A stretch of 36,535 nucleotides of DNA from Bordetella parapertussis (GTDB taxonomy: Bacteria > Pseudomonadota > Gammaproteobacteria > Burkholderiales > SG8-39), in the NCBI GenBank assembly GCA_945885335.1, contig CAMCYY010000003.1:1-36535 (forward strand), in the 5' to 3' direction. The notes beneath the pieces are model-generated. The model was given only the letters and a program-made list of their open reading frames with translations, was not told the origin of the DNA and searched no databases. The position numbers and the translations under genes are program-made. Positions 29,036 through 36,535 of this stretch are shown in pieces (the first letter of the stretch is position 1; the number at the start of each line of letters is the position of its first letter).

Positions 29036-29043
29036 TTCGCGTG

Positions 29044-29104
29044 ATTATTATTCAGTCGAAAATACTCTTCCAATCGCGTTATTTTTTCTGAACTGATAAT
29101 AATG
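29044..29104. repeat. Imperfect AT-rich inverted repeat related to 17849-17918
   Basis: ATTATTATTCAGT...AACTGATAATAATG; the 14-mer AACTGATAATAATG is identical to 17905-17918. Confidence 0.6.
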
Positions 29105-29145
29105 TTCTCGCCGTCTTGATGGCGGCAGGCTTCCTGCTTGACTGC

Positions 29146-31305
29146 CTAGTCGTCGTGCCGCGGTGGATGGCCGAGCGCGGTGAACATCGCGTCGAATTCC
29201 TCGCCCGGCATGATGCCGCCTTCCCAGACCACGTAGATGCGGTCCTGCGGCAGCAGGTTGCGCCGGCGATGCGTGATCACCAGTCGGCCGATCGGCAATT
29301 CCCCCAGCGCCTTCTGCACTTTTATCTCGGTTTCGTAGTCGAGCATGCTGGTGTATTCGTCGAGCAGCAGGAAGCGCGGCTGCTTGTACAGCGCACGCGC
29401 CAGCAGGATGCGCTGGCGCTGGCCGCCGGAGAGGTTCGTTCCCATGCCGCCCACCAGTGACTGGTAGCCCATGGGCATCATGGCAATGGCTTCGTGCACC
29501 TGTGCGACCTTCGCCGCCTCGATCACGCGGTCCTCGTCCGGCGTGCCATCGAACATGCAGATGTTGTCGAAGATCGATCCGGAGAACAGGAAGTCCTCCT
29601 GCATCACCATGCCCAACATGGAGCGGTAGGTGGCGAGGCCCAGTTTCGAGGTCGGCATGCCGTTCAGCAGCACCTCACCCTCGTCAGGCACCAGCATGCC
29701 TGCGACGATCTTGATCAGTGTCGATTTGCCGCAACCAGACGGGCCGACGATGGCGACCGAATCCTGCGGCGTCAGTTTCAGGTTGATGTTCTTCAGCACC
29801 GCGTCCTCACCGGGGGCGTAGCGGAAGCTCACGTTGCGCAGTTCGATCTCCAGCGGTCCGTCGCGGTCGACGCGCAACCGGTCGGCCGGCAGGCTTTCGA
29901 TTTCCGGTTCGGTGAGCACGATGTCGGCGAGGCGCTCGCCCTGCAGCCGGAGCAGCCTGAAGCTCATGAGGCGGTCGGCCAGCGCCATGATGCGCATCAG
30001 GAACTGGTCCTTGTAGGCGAGGAAGGCCACCATCATGCCGACGGTGAAGGTCTTATCGAGGATCATGCCGACCATCAGGAACAGGATCAGCGAGACTTCC
30101 AGCGCGCTGACCAGGCCGTTGGCACTCTGGTAGATCAGATCCAGCTTGCGGATCGCGACGGTGGCGTTGTAGACGCCGATCTGGCGGTTCATCCAGCCGG
30201 CCACCTGCCAGCCCATCTGCGAGAAAAACTTGATGGCTGGAATGCCGCGCAGGGTTTCGAACAGGAAGGAGTCGCGCGATGCGGAACGGACGATGCGCTC
30301 TTCGGTGGCGGCACGGTAGCGTCCGAACATCATGAAGCGCACCAGCACGTAGCCCAGTGCCGCCAGCAGTACCACGCCGGTCAGTTTGGGGCTGTAGAAG
30401 AACATCACGGTGAGGGCGATGGAGGCCATTAGGGCGTCCAGCACGGTCTCGATGAAATGCGTGCTGATCGTGCTCTGTATCTCGTCCACTGACCGGAAGC
30501 GCGAAATGACATCGCCGACATGGCGTTTTTCGAAAAACGACACGGGCAGGCGCACCAGATGCTGGAACACGCTCGAACTGGAGCGCAGGTTCCACGACAC
30601 GGTGGCCGCCAGCAGCACCCAGCCGCGCAGCATGCGTGTGGCAGTGCGCGTGACCGAAATCAGGAACAGCGCGACCACGACAACGACCAGCAGATTGACA
30701 TCGGCGGTGACCACGACCTCGTCAATGATCCACTGGTTGATCAGCGGCAGGAATATTCCCAGTCCCTCCAGTGCCAGCGACAGCAGCAGCACCTGTGCGA
30801 ATGCGCCCAGCAGGTCGCGGTCGCCGGTCAGGAACATGCGCAGGTTGAGTTGCGTTTTCGCGACCTCGGGTTTGAAGTCGTCGCGTGGGGTCAGTTCTAG
30901 GGCAACGCCGGAAAAATGCTGGCCGACTTCCTCCATGCCGTACTCGCGGCGGCCCAGCTCGGGGTCGTTCACGATCAGCCGGCCGCGGTGCATGCCCACC
31001 ATGACCACAAAGTGGTTCAGGTCCCAGTGCAGGATGCAGGGGGTTTTCAACTGCGGCAGTTCATCGACCTCGAGGCGCACGGCGCGGGCGTTGAACTTGA
31101 GGTCGTCGGCGATTTCCACCAGGCGGGCCAGCGTGGTGCCTTTCATGGACACCGGATGGCGGCGCCGCAACATGAGTACATCGGTTTCGTAGCCGGCCGC
31201 GCTGGCGCACATGGCAAGGCAGGCCAGGCCGCATTCTGCTTCCTCGGTCTGCAGGAGGATCGGCGGTTCACGCCGCGACCAGAGGGAGAAGAAATTCGCG
31301 CTCAT
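29146..31305 (-). CDS. Peptidase-containing ABC transporter (C39 + TMD + NBD), CvaB/MchF/RaxB-like
   Basis: LQTEEAECGLACLAM (catalytic Cys), ILHWDLNHFVV (His), FSGVALELTP, Walker A GPSGCGKST, LSGGQRQR, Walker B LLLDE; probable ATG at 31305. Confidence 0.95.
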   Translation of the reverse strand: MSANFFSLWSRREPPILLQTEEAECGLACLAMCASAAGYETDVLMLRRRHPVSMKGTTLARLVEIADDLKFNARAVRLEVDELPQLKTPCILHWDLNHFVVMVGMHRGRLIVNDPELGRREYGMEEVGQHFSGVALELTPRDDFKPEVAKTQLNLRMFLTGDRDLLGAFAQVLLLSLALEGLGIFLPLINQWIIDEVVVTADVNLLVVVVVALFLISVTRTATRMLRGWVLLAATVSWNLRSSSSVFQHLVRLPVSFFEKRHVGDVISRFRSVDEIQSTISTHFIETVLDALMASIALTVMFFYSPKLTGVVLLAALGYVLVRFMMFGRYRAATEERIVRSASRDSFLFETLRGIPAIKFFSQMGWQVAGWMNRQIGVYNATVAIRKLDLIYQSANGLVSALEVSLILFLMVGMILDKTFTVGMMVAFLAYKDQFLMRIMALADRLMSFRLLRLQGERLADIVLTEPEIESLPADRLRVDRDGPLEIELRNVSFRYAPGEDAVLKNINLKLTPQDSVAIVGPSGCGKSTLIKIVAGMLVPDEGEVLLNGMPTSKLGLATYRSMLGMVMQEDFLFSGSIFDNICMFDGTPDEDRVIEAAKVAQVHEAIAMMPMGYQSLVGGMGTNLSGGQRQRILLARALYKQPRFLLLDEYTSMLDYETEIKVQKALGELPIGRLVITHRRRNLLPQDRIYVVWEGGIMPGEEFDAMFTALGHPPRHDD

Positions 31306-31315
31306 GAGATTGCCT

Positions 31316-32566
31316 TCAAAGCTTGCGTGCCAGGGCATACAGCGGATCGAGCATCCACTCGATCAGGCGGCGGCGGTCCAGCTCGATGTCGGCCGACAGG
31401 GTCAGGCCGGGTCGCAGCCGGATGGTGGAGCCGTAGGCCTCGATCTGTTCGCTGTCCAGTTTGACCCGGATGCGGAACATGTTTCTGTCCTTGGCGGCTG
31501 CCGCTGCCGGCGCGTCCAGGTCGGTCGCCGCCACATCGGCTTCCGAGACCTTGGTGACGGTGCCGCTGTACTGTCCGAATTTTTCAAAGGGAAATGCGTC
31601 GTAGCGCAGCGTGACACGGCGCCCCGGGCGGATCTGCGCCATGGCGCTGCTGGGTACATACAGTACGGCCTGCAGGGTGGCATTGGCGGGGACGATGGCG
31701 GCAATCAGCGTCGCCGGTTCGACGCGCTGTCCGATTGAGCCGAGTAGCGCGGTGACGGTGCCGTCCACCGGCGCGTGCAACTGCAGGGCGCTGTCCGAAC
31801 GGCGCTGCAGGCGGTCCTGTTCCAGCGCGAGGCGGGTGCGTTCCGCACCCGCAGAGTCGGCCTGGGTCCGTGCCTTGAGCGCATCGAGTTCGGTTTGCGC
31901 GCCGCGCGCCTCCGCCTGCAGGGCCTCGCGCGCGCGCATCAGCGACTGCAGTCGTGCACTCTGGTCCAGCTGCTGGTTGAGCTGCTGCTGGTATTGCAGG
32001 TCGGAAATGATGCGCTCGTCGGCCAGCGGCTTGAGGTTTGCAATGACGCGCCCCGAGGCGGCGATGAGCTGCTGTTGCAGGCGAAGTTCTTCATCGATAT
32101 GCACCAGGTCGCGATTCGCGCGGCGCATGCGCTCGGCCAGACCCGCGGCGGTTGCTCTGGCCGCCGCCTGCTGTTCGCGCGTCTGCAGCCGGATCTGGTC
32201 GGCCTGCAGGCCGAGGCTGCGATCGACCAGCGCTGCAGTTGGGCCATCCTGTCCGACGCGTTCGCGGCTGAGCTGTACCAGCAATTCTCCGGCGCGCACC
32301 TCCTGCCCGTCGCGTACCAGGATCGCCGAGATCACTGCGCTTTCGGGTGAACGCAGCCGGATGATGCCCTCGGCGGGGGCGATTACGCCGGTTACTCTTT
32401 CCTTGCGGGTGTATGAACCGAAAAACAGGAAGGTGAGCGCGACCACGGCGATCACGCTGATCAGTGCCACGGGCACCCAGACCTTCACCGGGCGTATGGA
32501 ACTGACATCGCCGGTCCAGCGGCTTTGCCTGGCTTCGATGGCCTGCTTGCGGAACAGGTCGCTCAT
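31316..32566 (-). CDS. HlyD-family periplasmic adaptor, CvaA/RaxA-like
   Basis: MSDLFRKQAI start (ATGA overlap with the tolC-like stop), one TM, GSYTRKERVTG, coiled coil, APVDGTV, LRYDAFPFEKFG, LRPGLTLSADI and LIEWMLDPLY. Confidence 0.94.
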   Translation of the reverse strand: MSDLFRKQAIEARQSRWTGDVSSIRPVKVWVPVALISVIAVVALTFLFFGSYTRKERVTGVIAPAEGIIRLRSPESAVISAILVRDGQEVRAGELLVQLSRERVGQDGPTAALVDRSLGLQADQIRLQTREQQAAARATAAGLAERMRRANRDLVHIDEELRLQQQLIAASGRVIANLKPLADERIISDLQYQQQLNQQLDQSARLQSLMRAREALQAEARGAQTELDALKARTQADSAGAERTRLALEQDRLQRRSDSALQLHAPVDGTVTALLGSIGQRVEPATLIAAIVPANATLQAVLYVPSSAMAQIRPGRRVTLRYDAFPFEKFGQYSGTVTKVSEADVAATDLDAPAAAAAKDRNMFRIRVKLDSEQIEAYGSTIRLRPGLTLSADIELDRRRLIEWMLDPLYALARKL

Positions 32567-34062
32567 GGCGTGCTCCGCTGTGGTGGCATTGTGGCTGTTG
32601 ACGCAGCGGTCTCGAAGGCGGGTTCGATCCTGGCGAGGAACGCGGGGCTCAGGTCGCCGATCAGGGCGGCAATCCGTGACTGGGCCGCCAGCACTGCGAT
32701 GCGTGCGCGCAGCAGTTCGCGCTGCGTCGAAAAACTCAGCTGCTGTGAATTGAGCAGGTCGATGTTCGTGCGCGCGCCGGCATCGAAGGCCTTGCGCGTC
32801 GCCGCCAGTGTGGCATTGGCGGTGGCGAGCACGCCGTTCTGGATGCGCCACTGCTCGATGGCGCGCTGCAGGGCGAGATAGGCCTTGCGCAATTCGGTTT
32901 CCAGCACCCGGCCTGCGTCATCGAGCTGTGCCTGGGCTGCCTCCGAGAGCGCGCTGGCTTCCCGTACGCGGGCCTCGCCCACGCCGCCGGTGTAAAGCGG
33001 AATGGCGAGTTGCACACCGATGCCCGTCGAAGGGATGGTGCCTGAAAGGCCACCGCTCAATCGTGAGCGATCCACATTGCCGACCAGGTCCACGGTCGGG
33101 TTCAGTGCGGCGCGTTGCACGGTGATGCCGGCCCTGGTCGCGCCCAGCGTGGCAGTGAGTCGCGCCAGCGTGGGGTTTTTTTCGTAGGCGAGCGTGACGG
33201 CATTGATGACGTCATTCGGAATCACCAGCGGGGGCAGGCTGTTGCGGACCCGGGTGACCTTCTCGACGCTGGTCCAGGCCAGCCGGCCCAGTTCCGCCAG
33301 TTGTGTGCGATACAGCGCCTGGGCGCCCTCGATCTGCGACAGCAGCGATTCGCTGCGGGATGAGGTTTCCATGACTTCGACCACGGTGCCGACGCCGCCT
33401 TCCATGCGGCGCTGGTTCAAGGTGCGCTGTGTCAGCAGGACGGATCGCTCCTGGTTGAGCAGGTCGGTCTCTTCGTCCGCCTGTGCTGATCCGAGGAAGG
33501 CCTCGATGGTACGGAGCAGGATGTCCTGCCTGCCCTCGGCCTCTGCTTCGCGTGAAGATGATTGCTGGAATTGTGCCTGGTCGATGCCGGCGTCGGCTTG
33601 AGGTCGATACAGCGGAATCGACAGGCGCAACCCGCCGGAAGTGCTGCTGAAGGGCAGGGTACCGCCGATGTCGGCAAGCTCGCGGCGATAGCCGAGCACA
33701 CCGCCCAGGCTGGGGCGCAATCCGCCGCGTGCCTGTTCAAGTCTTTGTTCTTCGGCGCGTGTGCGTGCATCAGCTGCGATCAGGGCTGGCTGCGCCGCAA
33801 GCGCCATCTCCCCCATCTGCGTCAGACTGACGACGGCAGTGGAGGGGCTGCGGTGCGCGCGTGAGACCTGAGTGTCGGCGATGGCGAGTTCGGTGGTCAT
33901 GCGCAGCGGGATGCCTGCCTCTGGTTCAGCCTGCGCCAGCATTGGCAGAGCCGTTGCGGCGAATAGCGCGGCAACCATCAGGAGGCTGAGCGGCTGCCGC
34001 GCAGGATGAGGCTGTCTGTGAGGGGGCGCGCTGGCGAGCATTAAGAATTCTATAGCGGGCAT
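32563..34062 (-). CDS. TolC-family outer membrane channel (start uncertain: 34062, 34041 or 33978)
   Basis: Signal peptide ending LAQA; two OEP repeats (LSIPLY, LAIPLYTGG); FDAGARTNIDLLNSQQ. Confidence 0.92.
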   Translation of the reverse strand: MPAIEFLMLASAPPHRQPHPARQPLSLLMVAALFAATALPMLAQAEPEAGIPLRMTTELAIADTQVSRAHRSPSTAVVSLTQMGEMALAAQPALIAADARTRAEEQRLEQARGGLRPSLGGVLGYRRELADIGGTLPFSSTSGGLRLSIPLYRPQADAGIDQAQFQQSSSREAEAEGRQDILLRTIEAFLGSAQADEETDLLNQERSVLLTQRTLNQRRMEGGVGTVVEVMETSSRSESLLSQIEGAQALYRTQLAELGRLAWTSVEKVTRVRNSLPPLVIPNDVINAVTLAYEKNPTLARLTATLGATRAGITVQRAALNPTVDLVGNVDRSRLSGGLSGTIPSTGIGVQLAIPLYTGGVGEARVREASALSEAAQAQLDDAGRVLETELRKAYLALQRAIEQWRIQNGVLATANATLAATRKAFDAGARTNIDLLNSQQLSFSTQRELLRARIAVLAAQSRIAALIGDLSPAFLARIEPAFETAASTATMPPQRSTP

Positions 34063-34063
34063 G

Positions 34064-34091
34064 AAAAAAAGCCGCCTGTTGGCGGCTTTTT
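34064..34091 (-). terminator. Intrinsic terminator between the precursor gene and the tolC-like gene
   Basis: A7-GCCGCC-TGTT-GGCGGC-T5 on the + strand, which gives a stem plus U7 on the - strand about 47 nt after the precursor stop. Confidence 0.88.
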
Positions 34092-34137
34092 CGCAGGATG
34101 AAGTGCCGGCACGTAGCCGGCATCGACATCTAACGTG

Positions 34138-34371
34138 TCAGGGGAAAATGCAATTCGGTGTGCCATCCGGGTTAAGGCCGACCAATACGGCACCAACAGG
34201 GCATGACGGGCCGGTACCGCCGCCGCCACTGCCGCCACCACCGCATTGATTGCTGCCCTGGCTGCTGCCATGGCCACTACCGTGACCACTGCCATGGTTG
34301 CCTTTGCCGCCGCGCCGTTTTTTGCCGCCGCCACTGACTTGAAATAACTCTTCGGGTTTCAACTCTCTCAT
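34138..34371 (-). CDS. Double-glycine-leader secreted peptide precursor (77 aa), Gly/Ser/His-rich
   Basis: The leader MRELKPEELFQVSGG matches the 15-aa colicin V-type leader (MRTLTLNELDSVSGG). GGGAG RBS; directly upstream of a C39 exporter system. Confidence 0.9.
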   Translation of the reverse strand: MRELKPEELFQVSGGGKKRRGGKGNHGSGHGSGHGSSQGSNQCGGGGSGGGGTGPSCPVGAVLVGLNPDGTPNCIFP

Positions 34372-34537
34372 GAGTGTGCTCTCCCAATATTGTTAGCAAG
34401 GGCGCGCACGTGTGATTGCGCGCGGAATTAAGTAAAACTACGCATGGCCTACAGTGGCAGAATATTCGCATATTTTGCCGTTCGGTAACAAGTCTTTGTG
34501 CCGGGTATTTACCAATATTTCAATGTGTTAAGCTAAT

Positions 34538-34554
34538 GTCATAAGAATTATGAC
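34538..34554. promoter_or_regulatory. Candidate operator palindrome upstream of the precursor
   Basis: GTCATAA-GAA-TTATGAC, a perfect 7-3-7 inverted repeat in an AT-rich intergenic region. Confidence 0.45.
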
Positions 34555-34618
34555 CATGTCATGAGGAGCCGCTGGTGTGGGGCCATTTCCGGCCGGATGC
34601 CTGAAAAGGGAGCAGCAC

Positions 34619-35764
34619 CTAGCGACCAGTCAGGATGCTCAGGCCGAACACGCGCTCCAGCATCCAGACCAGCGCAATCAGCGCAATCAGCAGTGAGCCG
34701 CCAGTCATGATGCCGCGGCGGTAGAAATTCGTGCTGCGCAGTGCGTAGGCCAGCGGCAGGAAGGCCGCAACGATGGCCAGCTGCCCGGCCTCGACGCCGA
34801 GGTTGAATCCCACCAGCGCCAGCAGCAGCGCATCGCGCGGCAGGCCGAGGTCAGCCAGCACGCTGGCAAAGCCGAAGCCGTGGACCAGCCCGAACAGGAA
34901 GGCCATCATCCAGCGTTTCTCGGCGATCACCGGGCGCACATTGTTCAACGCGGCAAGCACGACCGAAAGGGCGATTGTCGATTCGACCAGGCGCGAGGGC
35001 AGCGAGATCACTTCCAGCGCGGCCAGTGACAGGGTGATGGAGTGCGCCACGGTGAACGAGGTCACCACTTTCAGCACATCCCAGAACACCGGGGTGAAGC
35101 GTGGCGAGGCCTGCCACTGTCCGTGGCGCGATGCCACCAGCACCGCCGGCAGCAGCAGTGACAGCAGGAACAGGATGTGGTCAAAGCCGATCCAGATGTG
35201 CCACACGCCTTCACGGCCGAAGTCGATGAACTGCTCGAGCAGGGTGCGCGTGCGCAGCTCGAATTTCTGTTCGCCACGGTCGGCGGAAAAAACACCGGTG
35301 AGCGTCCCGCTGGCGGAGTCAAGTTTCAGCAGACCCTTGTGCTGGGTGTCGAAATCAAAGAACAGGCTGTAGCGGATATCCAGCGCATCCGCGGCGCGCA
35401 CACATTCGCCTTCGAATCGGAGCACGGCATAGGCGCCGTCGGAGTGGTCATCGACCAGCTGTGTGGTGGCGCGCAACGGGCAGTCCTCTGTGCCGGTTTG
35501 AACCTTCAGTCTTGCCAGCGCATAGGAGGCGATGTCAGCGTGCTTCGCCCTGAGTTCGCCCCAGGTGATTTCGCCATTGCCGTCAGCATCCAGGCCGATG
35601 GCGTACTCGAGGTCGCGCAGCGCGATGTCCCATTGGCCGGTGACTTGTCTTGCTTCGACCTTCAGGCTCAGGTAACTGTCGCTGGGCTTGTGTGCCAACG
35701 CCGGCGATGGCGGCAGCAACAGCGTCAGCAGCAGGGTGCCGAAAATCAACCGGATATTCTTCAT
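34619..35764 (-). CDS. HupE/UreJ-family membrane protein with an N-terminal periplasmic domain
   Basis: Signal peptide ending ALA-H, then GVWHIWIGFDHILFLLSLLL, FTVAHSITL and FGLVHGFGFA; the ATG overlaps the upstream stop. Confidence 0.9.
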   Translation of the reverse strand: MKNIRLIFGTLLLTLLLPPSPALAHKPSDSYLSLKVEARQVTGQWDIALRDLEYAIGLDADGNGEITWGELRAKHADIASYALARLKVQTGTEDCPLRATTQLVDDHSDGAYAVLRFEGECVRAADALDIRYSLFFDFDTQHKGLLKLDSASGTLTGVFSADRGEQKFELRTRTLLEQFIDFGREGVWHIWIGFDHILFLLSLLLPAVLVASRHGQWQASPRFTPVFWDVLKVVTSFTVAHSITLSLAALEVISLPSRLVESTIALSVVLAALNNVRPVIAEKRWMMAFLFGLVHGFGFASVLADLGLPRDALLLALVGFNLGVEAGQLAIVAAFLPLAYALRSTNFYRRGIMTGGSLLIALIALVWMLERVFGLSILTGR

Positions 35765-36535
35765 TTTGCGATCTTTCGCACGGCTTCGGCCAGCGCTCGA
35801 TAACGTGGGTCTTCGTAGCCGGTGCTGTCCATCCATGCAAGAGCAGCCTCTGCCACCCTACGGTCCTTTGCAGCCAGCGCCACTTCCATCAGGAGGCGCG
35901 CATCGCGCGGCTCGCGTTGCACCGCCCAGCCTTCGATGGCCAGCCTGGCCGCCCTGGCCGGGTCGTTATGCAATATCAACCGATGGTGCGCCTCTTCCTG
36001 CAGATGCAGGCGGTCGCCGCGCAGTGCCGCAGCGGCAAAGCGGTCATCAAGGGCGCGGATGTAGCGCGCCGCATCCGGTGACTTCAGCACGTGGGCTGCC
36101 AGCGCCAGGCGCAGCAGCAGCACATCAGAGCTTTCCCAGTTGCGCAGCAGCGTGATCACCTCTGAAGGGCGACTCTCGTCAAGCAGCAGGTCGGCATAGG
36201 CCGCGAGCACGAAGCCGTCAGTCAGACCGGTGGCGATCGCTTCCTTGAAATGGCGTTCGGTGCGCAACTTGTCGCCCGAACGCAGTGCCATTTCAGCCAG
36301 TCGCGTCAACACCCATTGCTGGTATTCGGTATTGCGTGGGGGGGTTCTCTCCAGCGCAGCAGACAGTGCGGCATAAGCCTGCCTCGATTTGCCGTTGATA
36401 CTGTCGATGACCGCGAAGCAGGCCGCCGATGCGAGCGGCGTTGCCTTCGGCGCCAGGCGCTCGCAAGCGGTGCGTGCGCCGGCATAGTCGGCCTGGACCA
36501 GATGCAGGGCGAATTGCCAGGAGATGGCTTCGGTG
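35761..36535 (-). CDS. TPR-like helical protein, 3' part; runs off the right edge
   Basis: Frame open to the window edge, with Ala/Leu-rich helical repeats (LAEMALRSG, AAYADLLLDE) and WAVQREPRDARLL; usual partner upstream of HupE/UreJ-like genes. Confidence 0.8.
   Translation of the reverse strand, partial: TEAISWQFALHLVQADYAGARTACERLAPKATPLASAACFAVIDSINGKSRQAYAALSAALERTPPRNTEYQQWVLTRLAEMALRSGDKLRTERHFKEAIATGLTDGFVLAAYADLLLDESRPSEVITLLRNWESSDVLLLRLALAAHVLKSPDAARYIRALDDRFAAAALRGDRLHLQEEAHHRLILHNDPARAARLAIEGWAVQREPRDARLLMEVALAAKDRRVAEAALAWMDSTGYEDPRYRALAEAVRKIAK

Follow-up and report, generated by a model that had tools for sequence, protein, structure and literature searches.

The window analysed here, the whole of a 36,535-nt stretch (contig CAMCYY010000003.1 of GenBank assembly GCA_945885335.1, deposited as Bordetella parapertussis and placed by GTDB in the Burkholderiales lineage SG8-39), raises the question of what is encoded by a short minus-strand open reading frame (ORF) that stands directly before a set of exporter genes, and what its product might do outside the cell. 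Judging from what is known of such gene families, we conclude that this ORF is very probably the structural gene of a double-glycine (GG) leader peptide, whose product would be cut after Gly15 by the neighbouring peptidase-containing ABC transporter (PCAT) and exported through a PCAT-HlyD-TolC channel. For the mature peptide we tentatively favour an unmodified, antibacterial product of the class II microcin type; this reading, and the roles that we assign to the peptide's modules, are drawn by analogy and could well be right.

Positions 34138..34326 (minus strand), to which a first-pass annotation of this DNA had drawn attention, translate exactly to the 62-residue core that it quoted plus the stop codon, and the composition matches its description, with 22 Gly in 62 residues, His at 26, 30, and 34, and Cys at 43, 57, and 74 (precursor numbering). 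The core has a mass of 5.67 kDa and a pI of 9.5, contains five Lys and Arg residues and one acidic residue (an Asp), and has no Tyr. Its grand average of hydropathy (GRAVY) is -0.67, the residues A, V, L, I, M, F, and W together make up 13%, and it ends in ...NCIFP, all of which agrees with the annotation's statement that the core carries neither a long hydrophobic stretch nor a Ser-rich C-terminus. Its view that the core is released from a leader is likewise supported, as a double-glycine leader with a predicted cleavage site is read directly before the core. Counted from the cut, the leader's hydrophobic residues stand at -4, -7, -12, and -15 and a Glu at -8, and alignments of relatives identify it as the most conserved part of the family. 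The basic head is also a general feature, with 2 to 7 Lys plus Arg in all 18 family members scored, while the 'G4S linker' stands only in part: the Gly spacer is there, but it is poly-Gly of variable length (longest pure run 3-11 in 16 of 18 relatives) and not a fixed G4S unit.

The exporter genes follow on the same strand, with those for the C39-ABC and HlyD proteins lying within 3 kb downstream of the peptide gene. The C39 domain of the PCAT bears the motifs QTEEAECGLAC, NHF, and NDP; QxxxxxCG, NHF, and NDP are the catalytic residues expected of an active C39 peptidase. The PCAT also aligns over its full length with the solved chains of HlyB, PCAT1 (4ry2), and ComA. Against TIGR01844 (type_I_sec_TolC) the TolC-like protein gives 5e-60, which is below the curated cut-off, and the HlyD-family protein, whose orthologues have 415 aa, gives 2.9e-43 against TIGR01843, also below the cut-off. 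The stop codon of the TolC gene and the probable start of the HlyD gene overlap as ATGA. In the assembly from which the window comes (80% complete), we found one C39 exporter and one GG-leader peptide with HGS repeats.

The peptide has no Pfam or NCBIfam match, and the sole match in a PDB profile search was an artificial GS linker. Relatives do exist: a word-indexed search of 5.8 billion proteins returned 6, an exhaustive search of 1.84 billion cluster representatives with a hidden Markov model (HMM) returned 10 at E <=0.001, and a wider profile returned 49 related proteins; HMM and phmmer matches to the relatives range from 1e-9 to 1e-33. Within the GTDB family, the peptide occurs in 6 of 317 genomes and 3 of 34 genera. 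Genome contigs yielded at least one related locus; metagenome contigs yielded none by tblastn, and a back-translated leader pattern added 4 short lake contigs. Matches in G018 and G051 (E ~0.005) were dropped, as they covered the low-complexity middle only and no GG-leader ORF was found there. The peptide is thus a rare accessory gene of freshwater betaproteobacterial metagenome-assembled genomes (MAGs).

It fits a family that we define here by a leader of the form MRxLKxEE-x-x-x-VSGG, a basic head, at least two x-H-G-S units at four-residue spacing, a Gly run, and a short tail. Module conservation was scored over 18 distinct members with His in the repeat (the His type). The leader is present in all 18. 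In 14, neighbouring His stand exactly four residues apart at least twice in a row, which upholds the i/i+4 pattern noted by the first-pass annotation; in the remaining 4, Gln, Tyr, or Asn takes the place of some of the His, and the number of His per core ranges from 3 to 8. The pair of Cys that it placed in the tail is similarly retained: a script counts two or more Cys behind the Gly run in 13 of the 18, 2 more have a C-terminal pair by eye (P0009 and P0005), and the pair is absent in P0010, G301, and P0011, the last of which is possibly cut by the contig end. Since Cys pair and His spacing are mostly retained, their loss among orthologues, on which the annotation had staked its proposal, is not what we see. 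Its suggestion that C43 is left free for dimerisation or metal ligation fared less well, because C43 is not positionally conserved; 12 of 18 cores have exactly three Cys, with the odd one in the head or after the repeat.

Where the pair is present, eleven members have a Cys loop of 13-16 residues and two have one of 23-24, and eight of 18 have a PDG or ADG turn. AlphaFold2 (AF2), run on a 13-sequence alignment, gave a mean predicted local distance difference test (pLDDT) of 61. In the model, leader residues 6-12 form a helix, the part from ~16 to 55 has no confident structure (with long stretches <50), and strands at 62-66 and 72-75 make up a hairpin in a block of pLDDT about 85. This predicted hairpin fits a C57-C74 disulfide and agrees with the annotation, which had C57 and C74 bracketing a beta-hairpin. 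Its further remark that the hairpin motif recurs in bacterial surface proteins was not borne out, as we found none among proteins of 136-2000 aa, a weak negative; in the source genome the only other matches to the motif are Arg-rich chance frames.

The tails themselves are of unrelated types (a PDG hairpin, an AASGG-W-D loop, a four-Cys tail, and a poly-Pro tail), and the repeat varies in copy number from about 3 to 6 units. The L013 peptide and those of L014 and L015, of 74 and 70 aa, are identical except for one HGSS unit. Tandem Repeats Finder detected a 12-nt period in the DNA of the repeat region, at 34251-34274, and slippage is therefore the likely source of the variation in repeat number.

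Of the 49 proteins found with the wider profile, 31 form a sister family (P0013-P0049) with a related leader (MRVLNLEEMLxVSGG), a basic Cys-containing head, an S-G-K-x run, and a Pro/Cys-rich tail. This family, from Hydrogenophaga species and metagenomes, is larger than the His-type one, and its peptides have 4-6 Cys and Pro-rich tails. Several of the source names are cultured Hydrogenophaga species, and one UniRef entry is called 'Bacteriocin microcin', an automatic name that serves as a lead only. Comparison of the two profiles by hhalign gave a probability of 97.1% (E 6e-11, columns 1-44); in this alignment the His of G-H-G-S falls on the Lys of G-K-x-S, and the four-residue register is the same. 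The sister family thus shares the leader type, the basic Cys-containing head, and the repeat register with the His type, but has Lys for His, no poly-Gly block, and Pro-rich tails. Sister-family loci were not found among the matches listed from 317 family and 401 order genomes, which is weak evidence. As far as the aligned sequences tell, what the two repeats have in common is not His as such but a flexible Gly/Ser backbone in which every fourth residue has an ionisable or cationic side chain. Because the sister family has Lys at the His positions, charge is favoured over obligatory metal binding.

The peptide gene travels with its exporter. The order peptide-TolC-HlyD-PCAT is kept in the source genome, G010, and G007; in the first two the cassette stands between the HupE and decarboxylase genes, and in G007 it stands beside unrelated genes. 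In G065 and L015, peptide and TolC genes follow SspA-SspB, and the contigs end within or right after TolC; in G063, L013, and L014, only SspB and the peptide are visible before the contigs end. Cytochrome c1, SspA, and SspB lie upstream of the peptide in a second genus and in lake contigs, and in G301 a PCAT lies 2.7 kb downstream of the peptide. The four-gene cassette recurs in at least four genomic contexts. Within the genus, the peptide is present in 3 of 11 genomes and a PCAT of the 730-aa type in the same three; the fourth strong C39 match of the genus, in G001, is of a different, 1090-aa type. At that G001 locus (C15, L041 4540-12446), two ABC ORFs of ~1000-1090 aa, with one strong and one weak C39 match, surround a 529-aa ORF, and a regular-expression search recognised no GG-leader peptide there. 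We dropped this second C39 system from the co-occurrence argument as it represents a different transporter type of ~1000 aa.

Directly after the PCAT of G007 (L010 2230-4838), and overlapping, are a 457-aa ORF of no known kind and a GT28/EryCIII-like glycosyltransferase gene. These may represent a lineage-specific modification of the peptide or may be unrelated neighbours.

Next to the cassette in our window is the HupE/UreJ_2 gene. Of the 11 genomes of the genus, 10 have HupE, with or without the cassette, and in G007 it lies on another contig; as a core gene of the genus independent of the cassette, HupE/UreJ_2 is not part of it. The protein has a signal peptide, a mature N-terminus starting with His, a soluble domain of ~190 aa, and then a membrane domain. 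The interval between the decarboxylase and HupE genes (29036-34618) is variable in the genus. It contains the peptide cassette in the source genome and G010. In G001 (L032) a TonB-dependent receptor gene is found there, together with one for a DMT/EamA-like permease whose C-terminal tail is long and His-rich, and G002 (L034) has an MNT/HEPN-like toxin-antitoxin-like pair, a GH15-like gene, otsB, and otsA. In G010 the PCAT gene is followed by one for a TonB-dependent receptor, the 73%-identical orthologue of the HupE-adjacent receptor in G001, which has no cassette; the G010 receptor is therefore assigned to the host locus, not the cassette. No TonB-dependent receptor adjoins the cassette in our window. 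The TPR-HupE pair, followed in G001 and G010 by the orthologous receptor, may constitute an uncharacterised metal-uptake locus. The rest of the window is housekeeping: panBC, pcnB, purM, dnaE, metG, dcd, and an Orn/Lys/Arg decarboxylase gene.

Putative signals for expression accompany the peptide gene (Table 1). A promoter-like site lies ~145 nt upstream, with one such site found versus 0.3 expected in shuffled sequences. The imperfect palindrome before it is common to the cassettes of the source genome, G010, and G007/L012, and to the upstream regions of L011 and L010, despite differing upstream genes. G063 may carry a degenerate copy of this palindrome. Inspection by eye revealed no convincing sigma-54 or Zur/Fur/NikR-like box upstream. 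Directly 3' of the stop codon are two hairpins, the second of which is the terminator-like one followed by U7; RNAfold of 34041-34140 (minus strand) gave -39.6 kcal/mol. A consensus terminator scan did not list this hairpin, which is kept in the source genome, G010, and G007.

DNA that is near-identical or 90-97% identical to the locus is present in lake and river metagenomes of several studies. A contig from another lake (X5, record 19) covers 33600-34700 without a gap and shows 29 differences. Of those listed, 2 fall in the coding sequence (34255 and 34261, both third-codon and synonymous) and 19 in the 247-nt upstream spacer; these counts are of the listed rows, and 16 further difference rows fall outside the listed X5 set. 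This pattern is consistent with purifying selection acting on the peptide gene. In one RNA library, an allele with a CCA insertion behind 34234 encodes one additional Gly in the spacer. In lake metagenome DNA runs, the GC-rich, Gly-coding segment 34192-34265 attracts hundreds-fold depth from contigs of unrelated organisms, and a mapping-based abundance of the peptide gene would therefore be inflated; this depth was disregarded here. Taken as a whole, the ORF stands beyond chance because of its Shine-Dalgarno site and terminator, the conserved order of its modules, the synonymous variation among lakes, and the position of the one GG-leader/HGS peptide beside the one C39 exporter found in the 80%-complete assembly.

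Table 1. Positions of the peptide gene, its modules and signals, and the neighbouring genes in the window
Feature	Position	Strand	Remarks
Precursor ORF	34138..34371	-	77 aa: 15-aa double-glycine leader plus 62-aa core; starts MRELKPEELFQVSGG
Double-glycine leader, residues 1-15	34327..34371	-	MRELKPEELFQVSGG; predicted cut after G15; read from translation
Basic head, residues 16-24	34300..34326	-	GKKRRGGKG; first part of core
Tetrapeptide x-[H/Q]-G-S repeat, residues 25-43	34243..34299	-	NHGS GHGS GHGS SQGS NQC; includes Cys43
Poly-Gly spacer, residues 44-56	34204..34242	-	GGGGSGGGGTGPS; AF2 pLDDT <50
Cys-bracketed tail, residues 57-77	34141..34203	-	CPVGAVLVGLNPDGTPNCIFP; predicted disulfide-closed beta-hairpin
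Stop codon of peptide gene	34138-34140	-	
Shine-Dalgarno site	34379..34385	-	GGGAGAG, 7 nt before ATG; GGAG-type purine-rich site in 10/10 aligned loci
Promoter-like site	34514..34563 (including palindrome)	-	-35 ATGACA from 34542, extended -10 AATATT to 34514; promoter scan
Imperfect palindrome preceding the -35	34550-34563	-	CATGACATGGTCAT; CATGAC-N3/4-GTCAT; candidate operator
Intrinsic terminator-like hairpin	34064..34091	-	GCCGCC-AACA-GGCGGC plus U7; between peptide gene and exporter genes
TolC-like outer-membrane factor	32563..34062 (maximal ORF)	-	Real start probably 34041 or 33978; Pfam OEP 8.8e-50
HlyD-family membrane-fusion protein	31316..32566	-	Likely start ATG 32566; maximal ORF to 32851; Pfam HlyD_3 2.9e-15
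PCAT	29146..31338	-	730 aa; C39, transmembrane, and nucleotide-binding domains; Pfam Peptidase_C39 1.3e-30, ABC_membrane, ABC_tran
TPR protein and 405-aa HupE/UreJ_2 protein, overlapping	34619-36534	-	Upstream of peptide gene; conserved pair

How would such a peptide work? We propose that the 15-residue amphipathic leader would dock on the C39 domain of the adjacent PCAT and be cut off after Gly15, and that the 62-residue core would leave the cell in one step via the ABC-HlyD-TolC channel encoded downstream. The terminator between the peptide and pump genes would allow more peptide than pump transcript to be made. Outside the cell, oxidation of Cys57 and Cys74 would staple the beta-hairpin, giving a mature peptide with a conserved, cationic, disordered N-terminal module (head, G-H-G-S repeat, and poly-Gly) and a small, variable C-terminal one. 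By analogy with class II microcins, the variable hairpin tail might determine the target or receptor, and the conserved cationic, flexible part might act as effector or translocator against competitors. Variable tails on a conserved N-terminus, together with a sporadic accessory distribution, lead us to lean towards antagonism with a diversifying specificity module. An unmodified peptide is favoured because no enzyme gene travels with the cassette and no YcaO was found in the 80%-complete assembly.

The review PMC10233263 describes class II microcins as peptides of 5-10 kDa with a GG signal, exported by a PCAT, a membrane-fusion protein, and TolC and carrying disulfides only, with a mean Gly content of 23.8%. 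It further describes these microcins as modular, with a C-terminal part for uptake and an N-terminal part for activity, and lists an adjacent immunity protein as a standard class II component. Our peptide has much in common with the class IIa microcins (MccV/ColV, MccL, and MccN, with CvaA/CvaB/TolC export): a leader of ~15 aa ending in GG, neighbouring C39-ABC and HlyD genes, a Gly-rich core (here 35%) of <10 kDa, the lack of genes for modification, a disulfide loop at the C-terminus (predicted here), and modular architecture. Unlike them, it has the TolC gene inside the cassette and no adjacent immunity gene; it is chromosomal, is found in freshwater Burkholderiales-type MAGs, and has no Pfam or NCBIfam similarity; and its core is hydrophilic and cationic with a four-residue His repeat of variable copy number.

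Other classes of exported peptide resemble it less. The core does not have the Gly/Ser-rich, Ser-ending C-terminus of class IIb siderophore microcins, and Pfam annotation of the window showed no siderophore-attachment genes. YcaO (PF02624), expected for thiazole/oxazole peptides of the MccB17 type, was not found in the 80%-complete source assembly, whereas control genomes were matched; Pfam annotation likewise showed no modifying enzyme in the cassette. A RaxX-type assignment is not supported either, the core being without Tyr and no sulfotransferase being present among the Pfam-annotated neighbours. Bacteroidetocins, bacteriocins of Bacteroidetes that PMC10233263 and PMC12219008 present as Gram-negative GG-leader peptides with a 15-aa GG signal and no immunity protein, are likened to our peptide by description, and they come from a different phylum. 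In the full-text literature on class II microcins and double-glycine mining, histidine-rich PCAT peptides, and Hydrogenophaga or Comamonadaceae microcins, we found no published description of such a peptide. One such study (PMC12219008) covers Enterobacteriaceae and gut metagenomes, and its main text mentions neither histidine nor Burkholderiales nor freshwater.

Several observations weigh against an antibacterial microcin-like peptide. No immunity-type small membrane ORF is present in the 247-nt upstream spacer, the 76-nt downstream spacer, or after the PCAT, and there is no immunity candidate beside the peptide gene in G010, G007, G063, G065, or L013-L015. To judge by sequence, the peptide agrees with class IIa microcins in genetic organisation and size except for this adjacent immunity gene. 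The core is also hydrophilic and repetitive and has no membrane-inserting stretch, unlike the characterised microcins that act at the inner membrane. With a repeat that is hydrophilic and not amphipathic, and with no immunity gene, we lean away from a classic membrane-active microcin. Atlas neighbours, among them an 'SP_0924 family bacteriocin-like peptide' (0.77), were rejected as they scored below the level that shuffled sequences also reach, and Atlas structure matches were discounted, the model having a pLDDT of 0.41. Lastly, transcription is only weakly hinted at: one metatranscriptome run (X20) contains a single 160-nt contig over 34136-34276, which may be DNA carry-over. That run left the remainder of the stretch uncovered, which carries no weight either way.

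The absence of an immunity gene also brings in the first of the alternatives, that the product is a non-toxic exported signal like RaxX, or a surface or matrix polycation that binds lipopolysaccharide (LPS), extracellular DNA, exopolysaccharide, or mineral surfaces. We regard this as rather unlikely. According to PMC8872720, RaxX of Xanthomonas oryzae is a GG-leader peptide with type I export by a PCAT, is not bactericidal, and has no immunity gene; RaxX and RaxB are thus a precedent for the PCAT export of a non-bacteriocin, and such export in proteobacteria is, on this account, not limited to bacteriocins. A non-toxic function would also suit a product that has no immunity gene, whose two subfamilies are hydrophilic, flexible, and cationic (His or Lys at every fourth residue) without being amphipathic, and whose repeat number varies freely, as in spacer-like or adhesive low-complexity proteins. 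But the RaxX system needs an adjacent sulfotransferase (RaxST) and has an unlinked TolC-like protein (RaxC, with RaxA and RaxB), whereas here TolC is linked and neither a sulfotransferase nor another modifying gene is adjacent. Moreover, in none of the contexts seen is the cassette accompanied by a gene for a cognate sensor kinase or receptor, 62 residues is long for a pheromone, and rapidly diversifying tails with a sporadic, accessory distribution (6 of 317 genomes) suit antagonism genes better than signals. The Gly/His-rich antimicrobial peptides of eukaryotes, such as those like shepherin and histatin, are disordered, cationic at low pH, and often modulated by metals; they are of unrelated origin and have no GG leader, exporter, or Cys hairpin.

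Less probable again is a secreted metal-binding peptide, similar to a metallophore or an extracellular buffer, in which the G-H-G-S units and a free Cys would bind Ni, Zn, or Cu and the tail would dock on an uptake receptor. Type-I-secreted hemophores, which are taken up via TonB-dependent receptors, provide an analogy. Each core does contain 3-8 His, mostly at i/i+4, with an odd third Cys in 12 of 18, and a non-toxic product would not be expected to have an immunity gene. The cassettes of the source genome and G010 also lie in a locus that looks metal-related (TPR, HupE/UreJ_2, and a TonB-dependent receptor), and G001 has its permease with the His-rich tail in the same interval. This setting loses much of its force on closer inspection, as HupE is part of the genus core (10 of 11) and is on another contig in G007, the G010 receptor goes with the host locus and no such receptor is beside the cassette in our window, and the cassette follows sspA-sspB in two other genera. 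In addition, no recognisable metal-regulator box was seen upstream by eye. Metal binding as an essential function is further weakened because the sister family has Lys in the same register and because Gln, Tyr, and Asn replace His in some units.

A wider proposal, which we likewise doubt, is that the His- and Lys-repeat peptides are not toxins but constitute a new class of immunity-free, type-I-secreted extracellular polycations, whose charge (or, in the His form, metal occupancy) would change with pH or with Ni, Zn, or Cu and which would capture metals or bind polyanionic surfaces, with the variable hairpin as a docking handle. If this were true, insertion of the cassette in the TPR-HupE-TonB-receptor locus would be functional and not accidental.

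We think it improbable that the peptide is the precursor of a ribosomally synthesised and post-translationally modified peptide, in which enzymes encoded elsewhere would modify the Gly/Ser/Cys/His-rich core before export by forming azoles, glycosylation, or cross-links. Cores rich in Gly, Ser, and Cys are of the kind used by heterocyclising systems, and the composition of our core fits this, as does the glycosyltransferase gene with the 457-aa ORF directly after the PCAT in G007. However, those two genes are absent from the cassettes of the source genome and G010, no YcaO was found in the 80%-complete assembly, and the four-gene cassette moves without an enzyme gene. Finally, a spurious ORF in GC-rich, low-complexity DNA is next to impossible and effectively refuted already: other frames are open over the same DNA (one of 94 aa on the same strand and two, of 62 and 44 aa, on the plus strand), but the leader, Shine-Dalgarno site, terminator, and adjacency to the PCAT fit a real gene, 49 related proteins are present in the database of 5.8 billion, and the differences in the coding sequence among the rows listed are only synonymous, so that the peptide gene is real.

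Class II microcins and GG-leader peptides are far more widespread than the few characterised examples from E. coli. To our knowledge, almost all of those that have been tested come from Enterobacteriaceae and are hydrophobic and membrane-active, with an immunity partner. The family described here extends this kind of peptide to abundant uncultured freshwater bacteria of the Burkholderiales type and does so with a very different core. What is new in that core is a disordered, cationic tetrapeptide repeat, which occurs in His and Lys forms, shifts in copy number between near-identical alleles, and is joined to a lineage-variable hairpin with a predicted disulfide staple, the immunity gene being absent. 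At 62 residues and, as predicted, free of modification, the peptide would be easy to assay. Should it prove antibacterial, nature would here offer, in compact form, a 'flexible cationic module plus swappable targeting hairpin'; otherwise, the peptide would represent another use of PCAT export in Gram-negative bacteria for something other than a bacteriocin.

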